Position numbers and translations under genes: made by a program | Virus genome (UHGV): UHGV-1561195 | Direction: 5' to 3' (one strand) | Origin: a virus | Length of the DNA: 12,053 nt | Shown: positions 1 through 10,793 of the stretch, piece by piece | Layout: the number at the start of each line of letters is the position of its first letter | Position numbering within the stretch: position 1 is the stretch's first letter | The notes under the pieces: generated by a model | Seen by the model: the letters and a program-made list of their open reading frames with translations, nothing else | Told to the model about the DNA's origin: nothing | The model's database searches: none

Positions 1-16
1 CGATAGGACGGTAGAA

Positions 17-457
17 ATGCAGAAATATATTTTCAGTGCTGATAAAAATGCGTTTTTCCCTGTGGAGCTTAAAATTGCTTATCAGGAAGCGGGGAAATGG
101 CCTGATGATGGAATCGAAATTGACGACACTGCTGCCGCTGAATTTATGAAGGAAGCACCAGAAGGAAAGTACAGAGGTGTCATCGACGGAATGCCAGCAT
201 GGATTGATATTCCACCACCAACACATGAAGAACAGATTGCAGCAGCTGAATTGCAAAAGCAGCAATTGATTAATAAGGCCAACGCATACATAAACAGTAA
301 GCAATGGCCTGGTAAAGCAGCTATTGGTCGTCTGAAAGGTGAGGAACTGGCGCAATATAATTTGTGGCTGGATTATCTGGACGCACTGGAACTGGTCGAT
401 ACTTCCGGTGCTCCAGATATTGAATGGCCTACGCCTCCGGCAGTTCAGGCCAGATGA
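17..457 (+). CDS. Tail fiber assembly protein, alternative copy (Tfa'/U'-like) inside the invertible segment
   Basis: ATG at 17-19. C-terminus LWLDYLDALELVDTSGAPDIEWPTPP matches the conserved tail-fiber-assembly C-terminal motif as I recall it. Lies on the opposite strand to the rest of the operon and converges on the other tfa gene, overlapping it by 29 bp, as in Mu U/U' and e14 tfaP/tfaE. Confidence 0.75.
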   Translation: MQKYIFSADKNAFFPVELKIAYQEAGKWPDDGIEIDDTAAAEFMKEAPEGKYRGVIDGMPAWIDIPPPTHEEQIAAAELQKQQLINKANAYINSKQWPGKAAIGRLKGEELAQYNLWLDYLDALELVDTSGAPDIEWPTPPAVQAR

Positions 458-1022
458 CATCCGGCGCGGTGCTGGTATCTGTTGCCGTCACCGCGTCAAT
501 GTAATCCAGCACGGCGTTTAGTCGGGTGGTTTCTGTTTGCGTCAGCTTCCGTCCGGCCTGCAATTTCAGTTGAATAAGACTAATGGACGCCATTGCAGCA
601 TTAATCAGCGACTGGCGCTGTGTTTCTGCCGCTTCTACTGCAGCACCGTGCTGTGCCTCAGTATCTGTCACCCATTTTTCCCCATCCCATTTATCGTATG
701 GCGTTAACGGTGAAAGCGTGACATAACCGTCTTTGATGGCACCGATATAATCCACTGTAACGGCAGCGCCATTTTCGGTTGAGTAAACAGTCTCATGGCG
801 ATGGTCTTCTTCATGGTGCCATCCCTTCCCCGTAAATACTGCCACTTTCCCCGAAATGTTTTCGCCCGGGTCAATATAAGTGGAACAAGCGGGCATACTT
901 ACACCAGTATTAATATATTCATCAGACCAACCCGTATATTCATACGTTACTGCATCATAATAAAAACAACGCATATCACCCGGTACTGTAGCCAGCCCAT
1001 TTTCATCAAAAACAGGTTTCAT
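429..1022 (-). CDS. Tail fiber assembly protein (Tfa/U-like)
   Basis: 197 aa. N-terminus [11 protein letters not shown]...EYTGWSDEYINTGVSMPACSTYIDP and C-terminus LDYIDAVTATDTSTAPDVIWPELP are typical of the Tfa family. Its ATG overlaps the tail-fiber stop (TAATG), indicating translational coupling. Confidence 0.8.
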   Translation of the reverse strand: MKPVFDENGLATVPGDMRCFYYDAVTYEYTGWSDEYINTGVSMPACSTYIDPGENISGKVAVFTGKGWHHEEDHRHETVYSTENGAAVTVDYIGAIKDGYVTLSPLTPYDKWDGEKWVTDTEAQHGAAVEAAETQRQSLINAAMASISLIQLKLQAGRKLTQTETTRLNAVLDYIDAVTATDTSTAPDVIWPELPEA

Positions 1023-1768
1023 TATTTAGCCCTCACCAGAAAGTTAAATGCGATGTTACGTGGCCTGACGGCAATAAAATTCACACCATCACCCACTGAA
1101 TTACTGGTGTAATGGTATCGAGAGAAACCCGGCTCGTGTGCTGATATTCCATCGTGATTAGCAATCGAATGGCCGGAGCCCTCTGGATAATTACCTCCAA
1201 ATTGCGATAAAGATGTTGCTGCCTGCCAGCTTAATAATGCTCGCCCACTATCCACCCCGCACCCATCATCCCAGATACGAATGAAATCACCCCGTGCGTC
1301 AGGTAATACCAGCGACGGAAACACTTTCGCCAGCACAGGGTAATCAGTGGCAGAAAATTTCGCTCCGTTGAACTTCAAAAACACCATACCGGACCAGCTG
1401 TTGATTACGGTATTTGGCATTGCGGCGGAGGGCCAGAAGAACGGAACTCCAATAGCCGGAGCACCTTCTCCCAAACCAAGGTTTTCGAGAGCCGTTTGCA
1501 CAGTGCCATCCGATTTGATATCGCCAAACGGATTCTTGCGGCTTAACAGCAGCGCACGAAGCGCGGTAAGCAACTGATCGTGCCGCGCCTTCTCCAGACT
1601 GGCACCGGAGGCCTCCACCACGCTGCAAAGTTCTTCCTGCAACATGTCAAAGTAGTCATCATCCAAATCGGTGGCAGGCGTACCGGTCTGGGGGTTACCA
1701 CGGGTAAAACCGTTCTTACCCGCGCCGAACTTATCCTTCTGCGCGGTTTTCGTGTCTATACGATGCAT
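1022..1768 (-). CDS. Tail fiber protein, short, with phage tail collar domain; constant N-terminal part (about aa 1-96) joined to an invertible variable C-terminal part
   Basis: 248 aa. The segment [49 protein letters not shown] matches the tail collar domain pattern (YP.LF...LPDLRG.F.R.WD.G.G.D.GRAL). GGAG-type ribosome-binding site 7-8 nt upstream of the ATG at 1768. A Hin/Gin-type crossover site lies inside the gene at 1466-1491. Confidence 0.8.
1466..1491. other. Candidate DNA invertase crossover site (gix/pix/hix-like, 26 bp): TTCTCCCAAACC-AA-GGTTTTCGAGAG
   Basis: Two 12-bp imperfect inverted half-sites flank a central AA dinucleotide. Compare hixL TTCTTGAAAACC-AA-GGTTTTTGATAA and gixL TTCCTGTAAACC-GA-GGTTTTGGATAA, both recalled from memory. 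It sits inside the tail-fiber gene at codons 93-101, where the constant/variable junction is expected. Confidence 0.6.
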
Positions 1769-1771
1769 GGA

Positions 1772-2356
1772 TTACTCCGGATATTTAAAAATTACGTAAG
1801 TATGCGACGGGCAGAGTTTGTTAAGCACACATTCGACAACGGTGTCGCCCCAGATACGCAGTGCGGAATCACAGGGATCGCCACATGTCATCCAGGTGGT
1901 GTTGGTGGCGGCTGGCATGTTGACCTGCCAGTAATACCGCCATTCAGGCGCGTTCACCGCGTCAGTACAGGCCGATGAGCAGGTGAACGTGCTTTTGTCG
2001 TATCGCGTGATGGTGGCATCCGGTCTGCCCAGGGCAGCAAGCTGTGCAAGATAAAAATCCTCGTTGATGCCGCCCGCCAGATTAACCTTCGCATCCAGTC
2101 GTTGCTGACGCTGGCGAAGGGTCTGTGTCCCTGCGGGAATACATTCATCCGGCAGGCCGCACAGACGCTCCCAGCGATTTATCAGTTCGGTGGTGGTGCG
2201 CGGATCCAGCTCCCGCATCAGGGCATCCGCACGCTGATGAATGCGGGTTAATGACGGTGCCGCACCGGCAATCGCCGGATCGCTGGCTGACCACGCCGGA
2301 CCGGGGGGCAACAGTGCCGACAACAGACGGATGTAATCATCGTTTGTCACGTCCAT
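1772..2356 (-). CDS. Mu gp48-like / DUF2313 (YmfQ-like) tail or baseplate protein
   Basis: 194 aa. Occupies the position between the J-like baseplate gene and the tail fiber, as Mu gp48 and e14 ymfQ do. Overlaps the upstream J-like gene by 10 nt. Family assignment is from memory. Confidence 0.7.
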
Positions 2357-3405
2357 GAAATCGTCCCCAGTACCGCCAGTTCATTTTTTGCAATGGAGAT
2401 ATTGTCTGCCGGTGCAAGCAACTGATGGCTGTATTCCCCGTTCGCACCGGAAATCGCCTCACTGATACGCGACACCTTCAGTTCTCCCTGCGGATAACCA
2501 TCACGCAGCAGGAACGAACGCAACTCGGCGGTGATGGCAGCCCGTATTTCCGGTGTGTCCGGCGTCACGCGGATATGAAAATCCACTTTATGCGCCACCG
2601 GCCTGAATACATACAAATCAGAGCCTGCCACCGGGGCCAGTGGCTCAATGTGTTGTCTTGCCGCCGTTTCCGTTGATTCTTCCGGAATGGGATTAATCAG
2701 GTCACTGCCGGCAATCATCACACCGACAGTCCCCGTTCCCATCCAGTGGCGGTATGTCCATGCACGGGTAATGCCGGGCACTTCTTTAGCCCAGACAACA
2801 TAGTCCCCGTCAGCCCCGCCCTGAGGCGTCCAGTAATACCGCTCAATGACGCGGGCGCGCCACGTTTCCAGATCTTCAGTATCGAATCCGCCAGTCAGGG
2901 TATCTGCAACACCGGAAGACGGCAGACCATTCACCGGCGTGACCAGGATTAATGCCGTACCGTCGTCAGCGTTACCGACCGCGCCTGCACTTGAGCAAGT
3001 GATCGGCACGCGCAGGACACCACCGGAGCTGGTTGCATCAGCAGTTGCCGTGTACTGAACCAGGTCATCGCGCTGAATCACGCTCCCGGCAGTCACCTTC
3101 AGGCCATCGCTGACACCTCCCCAGCGCATATACCCGCTGGCAGCCGTGGCCCCCTTGCGCGGACACCGTTTCATCGCAGCATGTCGCGCCAGCCAGGACT
3201 CATCGCACAGGTCAGGCAGCATGTTCATTGCCAGATAATCGATGTAACCGTAAACCGTATGCAGCGCCGCCGCATACACCTTTGCCCGCACGTCTTCATC
3301 CATGCGCCGGAGCGTGTCGCTGACGTCCAGCCTGGCGAATAAATCGTTACGGAGCATACTGATATTTTCTGCCAGCGTCGGGCGCTGAAATTCACTGTCC
3401 GCCAT
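2347..3405 (-). CDS. Baseplate J-like protein (Mu gp47 / P2 gpJ family)
   Basis: 352 aa. Its size and its position after the gp46-like gene match Mu gp47, and the sequence resembles the Baseplate_J family as recalled. ATG at 3405. Confidence 0.8.
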
Positions 3406-3820
3406 GCGTTATCGCACTCCACAGATCATCAAAAGAAATCATTACCGGTCCGTCACGACGCCAGAGAGTGATACTGTTACCCAGTTCATTAATCCCGGTG
3501 CGGCGGATATCCAGATCAATACGGGACACCACGCCATCATCAATCATCCATTGCAGGCATTCGCGGATATACCCCCTTACCGTCTGCACCAGCTGATTGG
3601 TCAGTTTGCTGCGCTGAAGCAGCCACAGTCGGGAGCCGTAACGGTCATTCTGTACCGCAGGCCAGGTATCCCCCCACCATCCCATCGGGACGTCGGCGTT
3701 GTCATCAGGCTCCGCCCGCCGCCAGGTAAACAGGGAAATCACCACGGCGCGGGTCAGCGGATCCAGCGGTGCGCTGGCGCAGGTGCGTTTACCGTTCACC
3801 GTCAGCCACAGTTCCATCAT
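3392..3820 (-). CDS. Mu gp46-like baseplate protein (gp25/W-like)
   Basis: 142 aa. Position and size match Mu gp46. ATG overlaps the upstream stop (ATGA). Confidence 0.7.
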   Translation of the reverse strand: MMELWLTVNGKRTCASAPLDPLTRAVVISLFTWRRAEPDDNADVPMGWWGDTWPAVQNDRYGSRLWLLQRSKLTNQLVQTVRGYIRECLQWMIDDGVVSRIDLDIRRTGINELGNSITLWRRDGPVMISFDDLWSAITHGGQ

Positions 3821-4365
3821 GCCTCCATCGCTTTATCCGGTTTGTCGGTGTTACTGCCCTGACCGTTCTCTCTGTGACGATGCCCGTTATAGGCAAGCCG
3901 CATCGCTGACATGGTGGTGCCGCCGGAGTCGCACAGGTCTTTCACCTGTCCTGTCACTTCCAGGTCCATTTCAAAACGTGCTTCAGGTGCATTGCGAAAC
4001 GTGATCGTTTTACCTGCACCGTCCACCACGATCCCCTCCCGGGTCAGCGTCACGGACTGCCCCTGATCGTCATAGACAGCCACCTCACCCGTCTGCAGCC
4101 CTTTCAGCCGGTAGCGACGGTCCGACACCGTAACAACCACCGCATGAGAACGGTCGCCATCCGGAAACAACACCACCGCTTCCGCACCGCTGTTTGCCCT
4201 TGCGGTAAAACCGTAGGGTTCAAGATGTTCAACCCCGGCTTTGGGTTCACCGGCAATCAGGGACACATCCACGGTCTGACATTTCGTGGCGGCACTGATG
4301 CTTTTTACCACGGCCCGCCCAATCAGGCCGAGGAGTTGTCGCTGCATGGCTTCAATCGTCCTCAT
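3817..4365 (-). CDS. Baseplate assembly/spike protein (Mu gp45 / gpV-like)
   Basis: 182 aa. Position and size match Mu gp45. ATG at 4365 overlaps the hub-gene stop by 1 nt. Confidence 0.75.
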   Translation of the reverse strand: MRTIEAMQRQLLGLIGRAVVKSISAATKCQTVDVSLIAGEPKAGVEHLEPYGFTARANSGAEAVVLFPDGDRSHAVVVTVSDRRYRLKGLQTGEVAVYDDQGQSVTLTREGIVVDGAGKTITFRNAPEARFEMDLEVTGQVKDLCDSGGTTMSAMRLAYNGHRHRENGQGSNTDKPDKAMEA

Positions 4366-5444
4366 CAGAACGGGTCCTCCTGTACTCTGGCTTTTTTCTT
4401 TTTCCGCGCGCCGGGGGCTTCGGGTTCAGGCAGATAAGCATCAGGCGGGCCGACACGGATTTCCGTCAGGGTGCCGTTCTGGTCCTGAGTAAACGTGACT
4501 TCCGAGACAAGCAGTTCGGTATTGTCGAAACCACAGACCGGATCGAAGACAATCACCCGCTGGTTGGGCTGCCACAGCGTACCGTTACCCTGTCGCCAGC
4601 CCTGCACCACATAGGTGGTTTCATCCGTCCGCGCCGCCCGTTGTCGGGCTTCAAAGTCAGCACGGGCAATACAGCCTGCCCCCGTAGCCTGCCCTGTCTG
4701 CCTGATATACATCGGACGGTAACGGGCAATAAATGCGTCCTCTGTGCGGGCCCGCAGCGCGGTGGTGGTGGCCTCACCGAAATCATCGTCGTTTCCGGCA
4801 CGCTGCCCCGCCACCTGGTAAACTGAAAACCGCTCCCGGATACTCTTCTCCGTATCACAGGAAAGGATGTTTTCCCCAAGTACCAGCGCGGTATGTGCCC
4901 GCGTTGAGCCAATACAACCAATCACCAGCCTGCCGTGCGGGTCGTCATAAGCCAGCGCCTGCTGCTGACCGAGTATTTTGTTGATCACCTCGATCACCGT
5001 TTCACCGTGATCAGGCTGGACATCCGGAATAACACCCGACGGCGCACCGCTGTTCACCACCTCAATGCCGAAAGGCGCAGCAAGCGCCTGCGCAATCTGT
5101 ACCAGCGATCGTCCGTTAAATTGTGTCGGTTCGGCTGCACAATCAATCAGGTCAGCGGTCAGACTGCGTCCGGCAATACCGGTGCTGACCGAACGGGCAT
5201 CGTAACGAACGGGCGTCGCCTCCACCCAGCCGGTGATCACCAGCTCATCACCAATCAGCACTTCCACTTTTGAACCGTTTTTAATGCGCGGCTGAAGCGT
5301 GGTGATACCCTCATCTCCCGGCCACTGGCGGGTGATCTCCACACTGAAATCCCGCGCCAGCCGTTCAATACCGGCACCGATGCGCACCGATGTCCAGCCA
5401 TTCCACTCCCGGCCATTTACCCGTAGCGTGACGTTATCGTTCAT
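4365..5444 (-). CDS. Baseplate hub / late control D-like protein (Mu gp44, P2 gpD family)
   Basis: 359 aa. Follows the DNA circulation protein as in Mu. Basic C-terminal tail ARKKKKARVQEDPF. Translationally coupled to both neighbours. Confidence 0.75.
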   Translation of the reverse strand: MNDNVTLRVNGREWNGWTSVRIGAGIERLARDFSVEITRQWPGDEGITTLQPRIKNGSKVEVLIGDELVITGWVEATPVRYDARSVSTGIAGRSLTADLIDCAAEPTQFNGRSLVQIAQALAAPFGIEVVNSGAPSGVIPDVQPDHGETVIEVINKILGQQQALAYDDPHGRLVIGCIGSTRAHTALVLGENILSCDTEKSIRERFSVYQVAGQRAGNDDDFGEATTTALRARTEDAFIARYRPMYIRQTGQATGAGCIARADFEARQRAARTDETTYVVQGWRQGNGTLWQPNQRVIVFDPVCGFDNTELLVSEVTFTQDQNGTLTEIRVGPPDAYLPEPEAPGARKKKKARVQEDPF

Positions 5445-6817
5445 TGCACTGGCACCTTCAGAGGGATCACCGGCACAAAACCGGGATGCGTAATGGCATT
5501 ACGCCGGATAATGTCCGCGTCACGCGCCGCGTTATCAAACCAGGTCGCCGCCAGCACCAGCGCGGGTAAAACCTCATCCGGTGTGCGCTGAATGATCCGT
5601 GCAGACTGTTCAAGGCGCGTGTTGATATCCGCATTCAGATCTGCTTTCACCCGGCGCAGCGCCAGAAACAGCGCATCACTGGTTGTACGGGACAACTCCT
5701 TATCAATTGCCGTATTCAGTGTGTCGCGAATGTCGGTCAGTTCTTCCCACGTTGGCAGGTCAACCGTGTTTTTCACCGCCGGTGCATTGTTCAGTGCCGG
5801 ATGCGTGACAGAAGGCCAGCCGGTGCTCTGCGCGGGTGTTGTTGACTGCCCCACTGTGGCATTCTGCATCACCGCGGAAGTTGTTGGCGCAGGCAATCGT
5901 GTGACGGCATACGCCGCTTCGCTGATTGCGGTCGTACGAAGGGTGCTGGCAACCACGTTACGCTGCTGCGTCGCCGTGGCGGTGGTTTTACTGTCCGTTT
6001 TCCAGACGCCGCGCGGTTGCAGATCGCTGCCGAGGCTGACACCGGAAAGCGTTTTGATCATGGTGACCAGGTCGCTGGCGTTACCATAAAGGCGTTTCCC
6101 GGTACGCCACATTTTCTGCACCTGCTCAACGAAATTTTTGCCTGACGATGGCGGCGGCAGAAGTACCGAGATATCCCCCTGCAACAGCCTGGCAGCATCC
6201 GATACGGCAGAATCCACCACTTTCATCGTATCAGAAACATACCCCAGCATTATGCTGGCATTACCAATAACGTCGTTCTGCACAAAATCTGCCACGCCAT
6301 CGATACTGAAACCACTGAAGCTGTCACTGATGCAGTCATCCAGTGCAGAACAGGATGACATCAGCGTCTGCGCCGTCGCCGCACCTGAAGTGGGGTAAGA
6401 GAGTTCTCCCGCTTCGACAAACTTCAGGTCAAAGCGGACAATACGCCCTTCACTCTTCGATGTGCTGACCCGAACTTCCCCGTCAACACAGACTTTCAGC
6501 TCACCGTAAGTCGGATGGACAAGCGTGCCGGGACCGGGTTTATTCAGCGCTTCAATCAGGCGATCGCGCTGGTCAAAGCAGTCATCTCCCACCACATAAG
6601 CTGTGATGGACGGGCGGAAAGTGATTTTCCCCAGGTCTTCGGTATAGGGTTTGTCGCGGTTCGGGTATTCGTGTGTTTCCACACGGCGACCGGTTCCCGC
6701 ACTTTCTTCTTCAACCTTAAACGATACGCCGCGAAATGACGCGTCCTGAAGTCTGTCACGCCAGCCTGAAGACGACGAAAGTAATGAAGGTCGGGTGGGA
6801 AATGAGGATAAATCCAT
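5441..6817 (-). CDS. DNA circulation protein (Mu gp43/N-like)
   Basis: 458 aa. N-terminal region WRDRLQDASFRGVSFKVEEESAGTGRRVETHEYPNRDKPYTEDLG resembles the DNA_circ_N domain as recalled. GAGGT ribosome-binding site 8 nt upstream of the ATG at 6817. Confidence 0.8.
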   Translation of the reverse strand: MDLSSFPTRPSLLSSSSGWRDRLQDASFRGVSFKVEEESAGTGRRVETHEYPNRDKPYTEDLGKITFRPSITAYVVGDDCFDQRDRLIEALNKPGPGTLVHPTYGELKVCVDGEVRVSTSKSEGRIVRFDLKFVEAGELSYPTSGAATAQTLMSSCSALDDCISDSFSGFSIDGVADFVQNDVIGNASIMLGYVSDTMKVVDSAVSDAARLLQGDISVLLPPPSSGKNFVEQVQKMWRTGKRLYGNASDLVTMIKTLSGVSLGSDLQPRGVWKTDSKTTATATQQRNVVASTLRTTAISEAAYAVTRLPAPTTSAVMQNATVGQSTTPAQSTGWPSVTHPALNNAPAVKNTVDLPTWEELTDIRDTLNTAIDKELSRTTSDALFLALRRVKADLNADINTRLEQSARIIQRTPDEVLPALVLAATWFDNAARDADIIRRNAITHPGFVPVIPLKVPVQ

Positions 6818-6841
6818 AGACTGACCTCAAAAAGGACTGCG

Positions 6842-8749
6842 TTATCGTGGAAAACGAAAAGGGGAATACCCCACATCGTGCGTGATTTTCATCAGGGGAT
6901 CGGCTTTGTCCGGTACATCAATTATCTTCATACCTGGCGGAGCATTCTCGAACGTGACTTTCAGCTCGCTGTGCTGTGTCATGGAAGAAGATGGATTCAA
7001 CAGCGGAACATTGGGTTTGTACTGACTCAGGCTGGCCTGATATTGCTCGTACTCTTTACGATCAAAAAAAGGCGTCCAGTCTGAAGCCAGAAACAGCCCT
7101 TTATTATCCAGCCAGTTAACCGTATCTTCAGGAACAACACTTTCCAGAGTATCTTTAACCGGCTCATACATCAGGGTTCCCAGAAAACCATATACCCCGG
7201 CCTTCCCGATAAAGCCGCGGCCTTTCCCCATCAATCCCGTTTCTGCCGATACCTTCCCCAGCGTACGCATCTCTCTGGTCACTGCGGTAATGGATTTGGT
7301 AACGTCAGCAACCCATTTGGTTGCCATAAACAGGGCAATCGCTTTCAGAACAGTTTCCCATCCCCCCATCGCCTGCGCCGTTTCATCCATCACGTGCCAG
7401 ACTTTTTTTATGACAGGACCTACGGTTTCCCAGTTATCAATAATGAGGTAAGCGCCACCAACCAGAAGAGCAATCAGCCCCTTAGCAGGCGTCATATTCA
7501 TCACACCGCCGAGAACTTTCATAATTCTGGACAAAGAGCCTGCAGCGGCTCCCACCGTCAGTAAGGCCAGACCGATTTTAGCAATGGTCTTAACGAGCTC
7601 CGGGTTTTCACGGACAAACGTTCTCACTTCCTCAAGGAGCGGTTTTACCGCTTCAAGACCATCATTAACCTCAGGAAGAAACGTTTCCCCCAGCGTGGAA
7701 GAAATGGCATCAAGTTGATTTTGCAGAAGTAAAAGCTGGTTTTCCGTCGTCGCTGCCCTCGAAGCATATTCCTTCTGCATCGAACTGCCATACTGCTGGG
7801 AATCCGCAACCCGCCTGAAGTTGGTACGCAACAAATCAAGGTTAGTCAGCAGAGGTGCTATCGCGCCCAGAGACTCTTTCCCGAACAGGGCATTCAGCAC
7901 AGCTGCCTGTTTTTCTTTAGGCACTTTAGCCATCGCATCCAGTACAGACAGCATGGTGCCCCGGGCATCTTTCTGCATATCAGCAGCTAATTTCTTCGGA
8001 TTGATCCGCAGAAAACGCAATGCCTGTTTCTGCGATTTTGTCGCAGAATTTCCCGCGGTCAGGGAAAGCATGAAGTTCTTGATCCCTGTGGCGGCAATTT
8101 CTGACTCCACGCCCATCCCGGCAATGGTTGCCCCCATTGCCGCGATTTCGCCGGAAGCCACACCTGCAACACCACCTAAAGGACCAATACGCGTAACAAT
8201 ATCGGAGATTTTCTTCGCGTTCGCCGGGCCGGTATTACCAAGGTAGTTGATTTTGTCAGCCAGCCCGGCCACTTCATCCTGCGTCATATTAAACGCAGTA
8301 CGCCACTGGGCCATCATCTGCCCGGACTCTTCAGCCGTGGTATCAAAGGCCACGCCCATCTTCACCGCATCAGTGGCAAACTGCATCAGTTCATCACGTG
8401 CAATCCCGGCCTGACCACCCGCCGCCACGATTTCAGCGATACCTTCCGCCGACATAGGCAGTTCGGTTGACAGGTCACGCACCTGCTCCGTCATGGCCTT
8501 AAACGCATCCGGCGTATCCAGACCGTCCACCACTTTGCGGACATCAGCCATCTTCGATTCAAGGGTGATGGCTGATTTTACAGGGAGTACCAGTGCCCCC
8601 ATTATTGCAGTACCCGCCCCGGCAGCGCCCAGAGCAAGGCTGGAGACTTCTTTCTGAAATCCCTTAAGCTGACGCTGCATACCTTTAAGCGGGCCGGATA
8701 GCCTGTCAACGGCGGTGATGATGGCTTTCAGCTGAAAATTATCAGCCAT
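6842..8749 (-). CDS. Tail tape measure protein
   Basis: 635 aa, Ala/Gly-rich and predicted largely helical, with a hydrophobic segment (IAKIGLALLTVGAAAG). Sits after the chaperone gene. GAGGAG ribosome-binding site upstream of the ATG at 8749. Confidence 0.85.
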   Translation of the reverse strand: MADNFQLKAIITAVDRLSGPLKGMQRQLKGFQKEVSSLALGAAGAGTAIMGALVLPVKSAITLESKMADVRKVVDGLDTPDAFKAMTEQVRDLSTELPMSAEGIAEIVAAGGQAGIARDELMQFATDAVKMGVAFDTTAEESGQMMAQWRTAFNMTQDEVAGLADKINYLGNTGPANAKKISDIVTRIGPLGGVAGVASGEIAAMGATIAGMGVESEIAATGIKNFMLSLTAGNSATKSQKQALRFLRINPKKLAADMQKDARGTMLSVLDAMAKVPKEKQAAVLNALFGKESLGAIAPLLTNLDLLRTNFRRVADSQQYGSSMQKEYASRAATTENQLLLLQNQLDAISSTLGETFLPEVNDGLEAVKPLLEEVRTFVRENPELVKTIAKIGLALLTVGAAAGSLSRIMKVLGGVMNMTPAKGLIALLVGGAYLIIDNWETVGPVIKKVWHVMDETAQAMGGWETVLKAIALFMATKWVADVTKSITAVTREMRTLGKVSAETGLMGKGRGFIGKAGVYGFLGTLMYEPVKDTLESVVPEDTVNWLDNKGLFLASDWTPFFDRKEYEQYQASLSQYKPNVPLLNPSSSMTQHSELKVTFENAPPGMKIIDVPDKADPLMKITHDVGYSPFRFPR

Positions 8750-9157
8750 GCTTCATCTCCTCATTTATACGGACGGCCTCTGCCTCCAGATCAGCAAAGT
8801 GGGAAATAGCCGTCCGGCGAAGTTCAAGGGGGTTTAATTTCCAGAACCACGCGACATTGTAGAATCGCTTCCGGAGGTCTCTTCCGTCTCCAAGCCGGTA
8901 AAAAAACGCATTACAATCATGCCTGCCTTGAAAATATCCAGCTTCGTCATCTGCGCTGCAGACGAGCGCGGGATCCCGGCCAGAAGCGGGATATATTTCA
9001 GCGCCACCTGACTGTCCATTTTCATACCACCATCAGGCGAAACAGAGAAAGGGAACCCCAGCGCCTCAATCTCGTCATACGTAGGCTCACGTATTTCCAG
9101 CACATGCAGTGTTTCTTTGTGGGCGATGATCGGTTTTTTAAGTACAAGCTCAATCAC
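8742..9157 (-). CDS. Predicted -1 frameshift-extended tail chaperone (G-T / E+E'-like fusion product)
   Basis: After a -1 slip at T-TTT-TTT (8900-8906), the new frame stays open for 52 codons (YRLGDGRDLRKRFYNVAWFWKLNPLELRRTAISHFADLEAEAVRINEEMKHG) and stops at TGA 8742-8744, overlapping the tape-measure ATG at 8749. Translated by hand from the sequence. Confidence 0.45.
8834..9157 (-). CDS. Tail assembly chaperone (Mu gp41 / P2 gpE / lambda gpG-like), in-frame product
   Basis: 107 aa, acidic, located between tube and tape measure. GTG start at 9157 overlaps the tube stop (GTGA), with an AAGGGG ribosome-binding site upstream. Contains the slippery heptamer. Confidence 0.7.
   Translation of the reverse strand: MIELVLKKPIIAHKETLHVLEIREPTYDEIEALGFPFSVSPDGGMKMDSQVALKYIPLLAGIPRSSAAQMTKLDIFKAGMIVMRFFTGLETEETSGSDSTMSRGSGN
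8900..8906 (-). other. Slippery heptanucleotide T-TTT-TTT (X-XXY-YYZ), candidate programmed -1 ribosomal frameshift site
   Basis: Seven consecutive A on the plus strand at 8900-8906. In the chaperone reading frame this reads cgT TTT TTT acc. Confidence 0.5.
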
Positions 9158-9510: not shown

Positions 9511-10793
9511 TATGCAGACTCCTCTGAATACTGAAGACGGAACTGGTTAACCACGGCAAAGACACGCAACTGGTTAACATAGTCAGGCGGGAACAGCGTG
9601 TTCAGGCGGTTCGGATCGCTGGCATCACGCTCCACAACCAGGTACTGCTTAAACAGTTCGTAGTTTTCCACGATCCCCGCACGCTCAAGCTGACGGTAGG
9701 TTGCCAGCAGTTCCCCTTTGATCACCGCCGGGGTGACAATCGCCTGACCGGGACCAAAGCGGGTACCGTCACTGGCAAGCTTGTGACGCCCGTACTTACT
9801 GGTAATGACGGATTTCAGTTTGCGCAGTACATACGCGCTGGTATGCAGCGTCTCACTGTCGAGGTAGCTGTTATCCGCAACCCCGTAAGCGTTTTTCCTG
9901 TACGTGGTGACATCACGCTGAATGCGCAGTACCCCACTTTCGACATACGCCGTTGCCACGCCATGAGACAGCAGGGTCTGTTGCTCGGTCATCGTGAACC
10001 GTTTCCCCTTCGGTGCAGGCAGCATACCCACCAGCTCACCGGTCTGCGTGGGACGTGCCGGATCGTTGCGAATAAACACCGCTGCGCGGGCGGTACGGCT
10101 TGCCGCCAGCTCGTCGGCTGGCGTCTGAGTGTCTTTTTCGTATCCCGCCAGGGTAATGTGCTGCTGGTTAAACTGGTCACCTGCGGTCACCAGTTCTGAC
10201 AGCGTGCCGATCTTTGCCGTATACACATGACCATACAGCTGACGCGCATAGCTCCAGCGACCGCTGGTATCGTTCATCTCGGTCAGCATGGGTGTGCGTT
10301 TACACATCAGTCGCGCCGGGCGAAAGACTTCCCACGCCTGTTTCTCTGTCGTGGCACCGGAATACACTTCCGCGCCAAACTCGTTATCACAGGCAAAACA
10401 ATACAGGGCAACACCGGCAGAGATTGCCGATTTGCCGTTCTTACGGGGGATTTCGGTATACACCTCCCGGAAGCGGCGCAGCCGGGAGCCTTTATTGACC
10501 CAGCCAAACGCGCAGCAGATCACAAAGAGCTGCCACGGCTCCAGCGTGATGGGCATCCTCTTGAATGCCCACTCACCCTTGGTGTGCGGCAACAGCTGAA
10601 TAAATTTGGCGGCCCGTTCAGCCAGGTCCTTGTCGAAGCGGTAACGAAACGACTTACTTTTTTCCGCCATCAGATCATCAAGATGGCGCTGGCAGGCCTG
10701 AATCACAAACTGGCAGGCCACAATCTTTCCGCGAACGACATCCCGGGCATACTGATTGGCAGCATTTACGTTGGGGTAAGATTTCCGGCTCAT
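9510..10793 (-). CDS. Chimeric ORF: N-terminal about 165 aa of large terminase (Terminase_1 ATPase fragment with Walker A PRKNGKS) fused in frame to about 260 aa of tail sheath C-terminus; probable deletion-scar pseudogene
   Basis: N-terminus [24 protein letters not shown]...FGW...[18 protein letters not shown]...[24 protein letters not shown] matches lambdoid TerL N-termini as recalled. The C-terminal part ([15 protein letters not shown]...[26 protein letters not shown]) is sheath-like and sits directly upstream of the tube gene. TerL-like sequence stops near aa 165 (about nt 10290). Confidence 0.6.

Follow-up and report, generated by a model that had tools for sequence, protein, structure and literature searches.

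The window analysed here, 12,053 nucleotides of virus genome UHGV-1561195, carries close to its left end a gene for a tail fibre of 248 amino acids together with two genes for tail-fibre-assembly chaperones (Table 1). Upstream of the fibre gene, and likewise on the minus strand, we found a complete Mu-type tail module encoding the tube, a chaperone, the tape measure, a DNA-circularisation protein and gp44-gp48. The initial annotation had described two convergent tail-fibre-assembly genes on opposite strands, and this description was correct, as both products match Caudo_TAP; the genes share 29 bp at their 3' ends (window 429-457). The gene for the 197-aa chaperone is co-oriented with Sc1, the variable part of the fibre gene. 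The gene for the 146-aa chaperone is co-oriented with a silent cassette, Sc2, and is itself silent in the window orientation. The segment therefore holds two pairs of fibre cassette and chaperone in opposite orientations, and the constant N-terminus of the fibre lies outside it.

Table 1. Coordinates of features at the fibre locus and at the deletion junction; negative positions lie left of the window and were read in sister contigs.
Feature	Coordinates	Strand	Remarks
Invertase gene, 184 aa	-965..-411	-	54 bp from partner site
Inverted partner site	-356..-331		TTCTCCCAAACC-AA-GGTTTATGAAAA; L003, L008, L012
Silent cassette Sc2, 3' end	1..14	+	codons I-G-R 3-11, stop TAG 12-14; remainder beyond left edge
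Invertible segment, portion inside window	1..1478	.	entire ~1.82-kb segment ~-343 to 1478
Second tail-fibre-assembly chaperone, 146 aa	17..457	+	Caudo_TAP E=4e-34; phrog_188 E=2e-62
Tail-fibre-assembly chaperone, 197 aa	429..1022	-	Caudo_TAP E=4e-28; phrog_105 tail fiber assembly E=3e-83
Fibre ORF, 248 aa	1022..1768	-	
Variable C-terminal cassette Sc1	1022..1465	-	codons 102-248 + stop; joined to constant part = expressed tip
Fibre-side pix site, 26 bp	1466..1491	.	TTCTCCCAAACC-AA-GGTTTTCGAGAG
Constant N-terminal fibre part	1466..1768	-	codons 1-101; outside invertible segment save site's inner half
Terminase-sheath fusion, 427 aa	9510..10793	-	in frame

When the fibre was compared with PHROGs, the N-terminal ~100 and the C-terminal ~170 residues matched different fibre families; the constant part matched tail-fibre PHROGs in their N-terminal regions, and residues 76-248, the region of Sc1, matched tail-fibre and tail-collar-fibre PHROGs. 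A Pfam search with the whole 248-aa protein gave no hit above threshold. In RefSeq, homologues of this fibre are named 'integrase' (WP_204608482.1; L001 7022-7768; hits H31-H42). Since the domain and PHROG matches are those of a tail fibre, the name looks like an annotation error, and the label is misleading.

The GC content is 0.477 over window 1-1478 compared with 0.557 over 1769-9000. A drop across about 1-1000 had been reported from the sequence, and this is roughly right; the composition is lower overall but is not uniform, consisting of two troughs (0.42 over 1-300 and 0.42-0.43 over 750-1200) separated by a hump of 0.52-0.53. The hump arises because the conserved C-terminal halves of both chaperone genes lie there.

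The 26-mer at the end of the constant part, TTCTCCCAAACCAAGGTTTTCGAGAG, covers codons 93-101 of the fibre gene (ALENLGLGE). Its 12-bp half-sites agree as a dyad at 9 of 12 positions around a central AA. With up to 3 mismatches allowed it is the sole match in the window on both strands, and the number of matches expected by chance, from 200 dinucleotide-preserving shuffles, was 0. The initial annotation had recognised here a site with the architecture of the Hin/Gin/Cin/Pin family, and the dyad, the AA core and the uniqueness in the window agree with that reading. It had further called the site hix/gix-like. The architecture is indeed shared, and 18 of 26 positions are identical to gixR of Mu, but the assignment can be made more exact because all 26 positions are identical to the site within stfP (ycfK) of the e14 element of K-12 MG1655. 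The 16-mer CCTTCTCCCAAACCAA is present at window 1464-1479. Strand exchange would be expected at the central AA, positions 1478-1479. No partner site was found within the window, either with up to 3 mismatches or by a scan for half-sites. A scan for additional half-sites with up to 2 mismatches likewise found none in the window, which holds one site, or in L003 6901-9800, which holds two.

The left flank in sister contigs

The left flank was read in sister contigs, which were chosen because they exactly encode the 146-aa chaperone and the 248-aa fibre of the window. The contigs L003 and L013 are 99.85% identical to the window over 9.8 kb, L012 and L015 are 99.83% identical, and L008 and L014 are 99.97% identical and also have the terminase-sheath deletion of the window that is described below. 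The best identity among complete E. coli genomes was 95-96.7%, whereas the contigs reach up to 99.97%, none being identical over the full length. Coordinates were transferred by subtracting 7984 from the L003 coordinate.

The predicted partner site begins 331 bp beyond the left edge of the window, and the partner and the invertase are known from the sister contigs. An inverted partner beyond the left edge, as had been anticipated from the window, was found at -356 to -331 in L003, L008 and L012. The fibre-side and partner sites have the inner half-site and the AA core in common (19 bp) and differ in the outer half. In L003 the site centres lie at 7640/7641 and 9462/9463, 1822 bp apart.

Between the partner site and the window there is a second variable cassette, again as anticipated. 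This is the inverted Sc2, a plus-strand ORF of 132 aa with a Gp53-like_C domain, whose final I-G-R-stop forms window 3-14; window 1-14 aligns with the end of this ORF in L003 (7600-7998) and likewise in L002. Reading inward from the partner site gives ...NLGLGE-AARRNVG..., which is in frame with the constant part of the fibre.

A serine invertase of roughly 190 aa had also been foreseen to the left. The sister contigs carry an invertase gene of 184 codons there, and its product has the Pfam domains Resolvase (E=1e-51) and HTH_7 (E=5e-13), matches phrog_125 'DNA invertase' (E=2e-96) and contains the catalytic-serine motif GYVRVSTNDQ (Ser9). The protein of L003 is identical to PinE at 174 of 184 residues (95%) and to Gin of Mu at 142 of 184. 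Every contig of at least 99.8% identity whose left flank was retrieved (L003, L008, L012, L016 and L022) has both the partner site and the intact 184-aa invertase. From these relatives we infer that the genome of the window probably still has both as well.

Invertases of the Hin family act on 26-bp sites and use a 65-bp enhancer bound by Fis (PMC3798978). A 15-mer that fits GNNYRNNWNNYRNNC, a degenerate Fis consensus, is present at nt 71-85 of gin, of pinE and of the L003 pin gene, and nucleotides 1-200 of the invertase gene are identical to pinE at 189 of 200 positions. In a degenerate-consensus scan of the invertase gene, a second Fis site at the expected spacing was not confidently identified. 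By analogy with the family, catalysis would depend on Fis and the enhancer.

Just past the invertase gene, most close relatives have an ORF of 1484 aa that gave no Pfam hit (L003 2042-6496, ~1.5-5.9 kb left of the window). This position is occupied by mcrA in e14, by a gene for a TrlF AAA-like ATPase in L002 and by cdtABC in L001. It looks like a hot spot for cargo or defence genes at the prophage end.

Inversion of the segment

Contig L011 contains the same prophage, with the ~1.8-kb segment in the opposite orientation. On one strand this contig is 100% identical to window 1-1484, and on the other it is 99.84% identical to window 1465-9118. Its two junctions correspond exactly to those of L003 after reciprocal recombination: the inner flank of Sc1 is joined to the outer half of the site on the invertase side, and the inner flank of Sc2 is joined to the outer half on the constant side. 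The switch of partners falls within the stretch common to both sites, and over the inner 1.8 kb the two contigs differ by 1 base.

As a result Sc1 in L011 faces the invertase side, and the fibre gene of L011 encodes a protein of 215 aa in which the 101 constant N-terminal residues are continued by Sc2, read in frame through the site. The 146-aa chaperone gene comes after this alternative fibre gene on the same strand. Residues 1-101 of the window fibre are identical to those of the L011 fibre at 101 of 101 positions, and to those of StfP of e14 at 100 of 101; the window and L011 fibres diverge from residue 102. This places the site at the boundary of the constant N-terminus and the variable C-terminus, where the initial annotation had put it. 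The earlier statement that the fibre expressed depends on orientation also holds, since the window encodes the Sc1 fibre of 248 aa and L011 the Sc2 fibre of 215 aa.

The metagenome scaffold L021 (4300-4416) contains the junction of Sc1 with the constant part and terminates in the junction of Sc2 with the constant part. Having both types of junction, it indicates that molecules of both orientations were present in one sample. Among complete E. coli genomes, a contiguous fibre gene of the constant part with an Sc1-like cassette was found in 38 and one with an Sc2-like cassette in 19. The flipped L011 and the two junctions of L021 together demonstrate that inversion occurs in this lineage; both orientations were seen in sister contigs. 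Assemblies of this locus may differ in orientation without being wrong.

The same junctions bear on the suggestion that the 26-mer is a chance palindrome, a mere piece of coding sequence for the conserved fibre motif ALENLGLGE that has no role in recombination. This motif is conserved across many fibre proteins, and so conservation of the 26-mer alone could stem from the protein. Against this, the reciprocal recombinant junctions of L011 and L003 fall exactly within the 26-mer, the sequence recurs beside the invertase gene where it heads a silent cassette that lacks a promoter rather than an expressed fibre gene, and it is identical to the experimentally inverted repeat of e14. The flipped L011 and its junctions thus refute a chance palindrome, to which we assign a negligible probability.

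Taken together, these data make it very likely that the window contains the right-hand two-thirds of a Pin-type invertible tail-fibre segment, of the Hin/Gin/Cin/Pin family, in a prophage with an HK97-like head and a Mu-like tail. In the mechanism we propose, the late operon would read via the baseplate genes into the fibre gene, whose first 101 codons are constant. The small serine invertase, whose gene lies just past the left edge, would pair the fibre-side site with the inverted partner ~1.82 kb away. By analogy with other members of the family, Ser9 of the invertase is expected to cut both sites at the central AA, and a 180-degree rotation of subunits would then flip the segment. In the window orientation the constant part would be read with Sc1 and then the 197-aa chaperone gene, giving the 248-aa fibre; in the inverted orientation it would be read in frame with Sc2 and then the 146-aa chaperone gene, giving the 215-aa fibre. 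The two fibre tips may recognise different receptors, as the analogy with other fibre switches suggests.

Known inversion systems and movement of the cassettes

The initial annotation had noted that such switches are known from Mu, P1 and e14, and this is so: the present system is itself an already known one, an allele of the Pin/P-segment switch of e14 with a different pair of cassettes. As a discovery it carries little weight, being a correct reading of a classic system (Pin/P of e14, Gin/G of Mu). The prophage belongs to the family from which e14 derives. In K-12 the P segment of e14 has the order stfP-tfaP-tfaE-stfE-pinE, and its fibre-side site is the identical 26-mer. The partner site next to pinE, TTCTCCCAAACC-AA-CGTTTATGAAAA, differs by one base from the partner of the sister contigs. 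Window 1461-3134 is 95.5% identical to e14 DNA over the N-terminus of stfP, ymfQ (gp48) and a fragment of jayE (baseplate J). The layout and the length are shared as well, the distance from centre to centre being 1827 bp in e14 and 1822 bp in L003. In contrast, neither variable cassette matches its counterpart in e14; alignment is limited to the C-terminal halves of the chaperone genes (88%), and the prophage of the window keeps the whole Mu-like tail module of which e14 has only fragments.

The P segment of e14 has been described as 1797 bp flanked by 16-bp inverted repeats of CCTTCTCCCAAACCAA, and it is inverted by PinE, PinQ and PinR (2025 paper, PMC12529663). It inverts in ordinary K-12 cultures, as was observed by sequencing and PCR (PMC4272514), and its inversion by PinE has been measured by these methods (PMC4272514, PMC12529663). 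The chimeric StfE2 fibre of e14 is reported to block the adsorption of other phages (2025 paper, PMC12529663).

The locus also resembles the G segment of Mu, in which the constant N-terminus of S lies outside, S/U and S'/U' lie inside in opposite orientations, and the invertase gene is located beside the far site. The gix sites of Mu have the same design, TTATCCAAAACC-TC-GGTTTACAGGAA and TTCCTGTAAACC-GA-GGTTTTGGATAA. Their cores read TC and GA on the plus strand of the Mu record, as would be expected for one core in inverted orientation, compared with AA here. The baseplate genes gp43-48 of Mu are homologous to those of the window prophage. The systems differ in size, with a segment of 3 kb and a fibre of 504 aa in Mu and a segment of 1.8 kb and fibres of 215-248 aa here, and the head module of the present prophage is HK97-like rather than Mu-like.

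P1, like the present system, switches tail fibres, and in Min of p15B and the R64 shufflon, too, the C-terminal part of a surface-recognition protein is exchanged by rearranging cassettes. The locus differs from Min and the shufflon in having only two sites and two cassettes, as judged from the half-site scan of L003 6901-9800 and the window. The C segment with Cin of P1 and the H segment with Hin of Salmonella have the same family of invertase and the same design of 26-bp site, as is well established (see also PMC3798978). Hin differs in that it flips a promoter and not a coding cassette.

The cassettes themselves are found in other surroundings. A segment that matches window 1-1484 at 99.8-99.9% is present in L004, a P2-like prophage in which the constant part of the fibre is of the P2 H type and the invertase has 197 aa, and in L020, a decayed element. 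Two further contigs, L006 and L009, share only window 1-1063, which holds both chaperone genes, at 99.1% and 95.3% respectively, and have a different Sc1 cassette behind other constant parts. Modules of the segment are thus present in P2-like (L004) and other myovirus (L006) prophages, and the cassette pair occurs at 87-90% identity in deposited phages. The cassettes travel from one phage type to another as modules. The many alternative cassettes, all attached to one and the same crossover site, offer a convenient supply of receptor-binding tips, and they are candidates for the adsorption-blocking role that has been proposed for fibres of cryptic prophages.

In L007, at ~7628-7653, the inner half-site of Sc2 continues, past an AA core, into GGGTTTCTTCGT. 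In L020 (~2170-2200, 1.7 kb upstream of the fibre site) GGGTTTCTTCGT belongs to a site-like sequence, TTTTCGAAATGG-AA-GGGTTTCTTCGT, which is weak, agreeing with the crossover site at 14 of 26 positions. The arrangement has the appearance of a deletion made by the invertase at a secondary site.

A switch in a defective prophage

Compared with the intact relatives L025 and L026, the window lacks ~7.2 kb. The deletion removed the C-terminus of the terminase, the portal, the protease, the capsid, the connectors, the terminator and the N-terminus of the sheath. It left the 427-aa fusion listed in Table 1, in which the N-terminus of the large terminase (TerL_ATPase) is joined to the C-terminal two-thirds of the tail sheath; the junction, at 10282-10295, is a microhomology of 14 bp that L008 and L014 share. 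With ~7.2 kb of head and neck genes gone, the prophage of the window is defective, and with the head genes and an intact sheath missing the switch cannot now determine which hosts a self-sufficient phage would infect. The initial annotation had spoken of a host-range switch. This fits the ancestral role, but probably not the present one in a viable phage.

In L010 the break falls at the same window coordinate, which raised the question of whether Pin had made the junction at 10282. We rejected this origin because L010 keeps more of the terminase and its own deletion ends inside Sc2; neither junction resembles a crossover site.

What the switch is at present can be read in different ways. It may be frozen, if the invertase or the partner site or both have been lost from the genome of the window and the fibre can no longer leave the Sc1 form. 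Locked copies do exist: in L001, an E. coli relative of 95% identity, the recombinase is a pseudogene of 108 bp and there is no partner site. In L010, L027, L029, L032 and L034 the segment or its immediate surroundings carry deletions or IS66 insertions, and the prophage of the window is itself decaying. Yet the five relatives of at least 99.8% identity named above (L003, L008, L012, L016 and L022) all retain an intact partner site and invertase, and among them L008 does so although it has the terminase-sheath deletion of the window. Moreover, inversion can be driven in trans by other Pin invertases of the cell (PMC12529663). A locked copy in the genome of the window is possible, though all closest relatives are intact, and we regard loss of inversion here as quite improbable.

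The switch could instead still flip and be kept because the alternative fibres benefit the host, for example by blocking the adsorption of other phages, so that phage host range would not be the reason for its retention. Such a function would fit the loss of ~7.2 kb of head and sheath genes while the ORFs of the fibre, of both chaperones and, in L008, of the invertase are intact, and a role in defence has been published for the homologous segment of e14 (PMC12529663). On the other hand, the cassettes differ from those of e14, and the deletion may be recent. In the flanking DNA the window and its intact relatives are less than 0.3% apart, and intact ORFs therefore need not mean selection. By analogy with e14, one or both fibres might serve as a reversible adsorption block; a switch that still flips for the host in this way seems unlikely to us, if a little less so than a locked one. 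If true, the cassettes of the window would represent a new specificity of a recombinase-controlled defence. The Pin-type segment is thus either a recent relic or, less likely, kept for a host function such as an adsorption block of the e14 type.

Other rearrangements were seen in the family. L008 and L014 are without 1.1 kb of the tape-measure gene that is kept in the window (7485-8610), and the invertible segment of L032 and L034 (18100-20700) is interrupted by an IS66 element. Both findings add to the signs that this family of prophages is still decaying.
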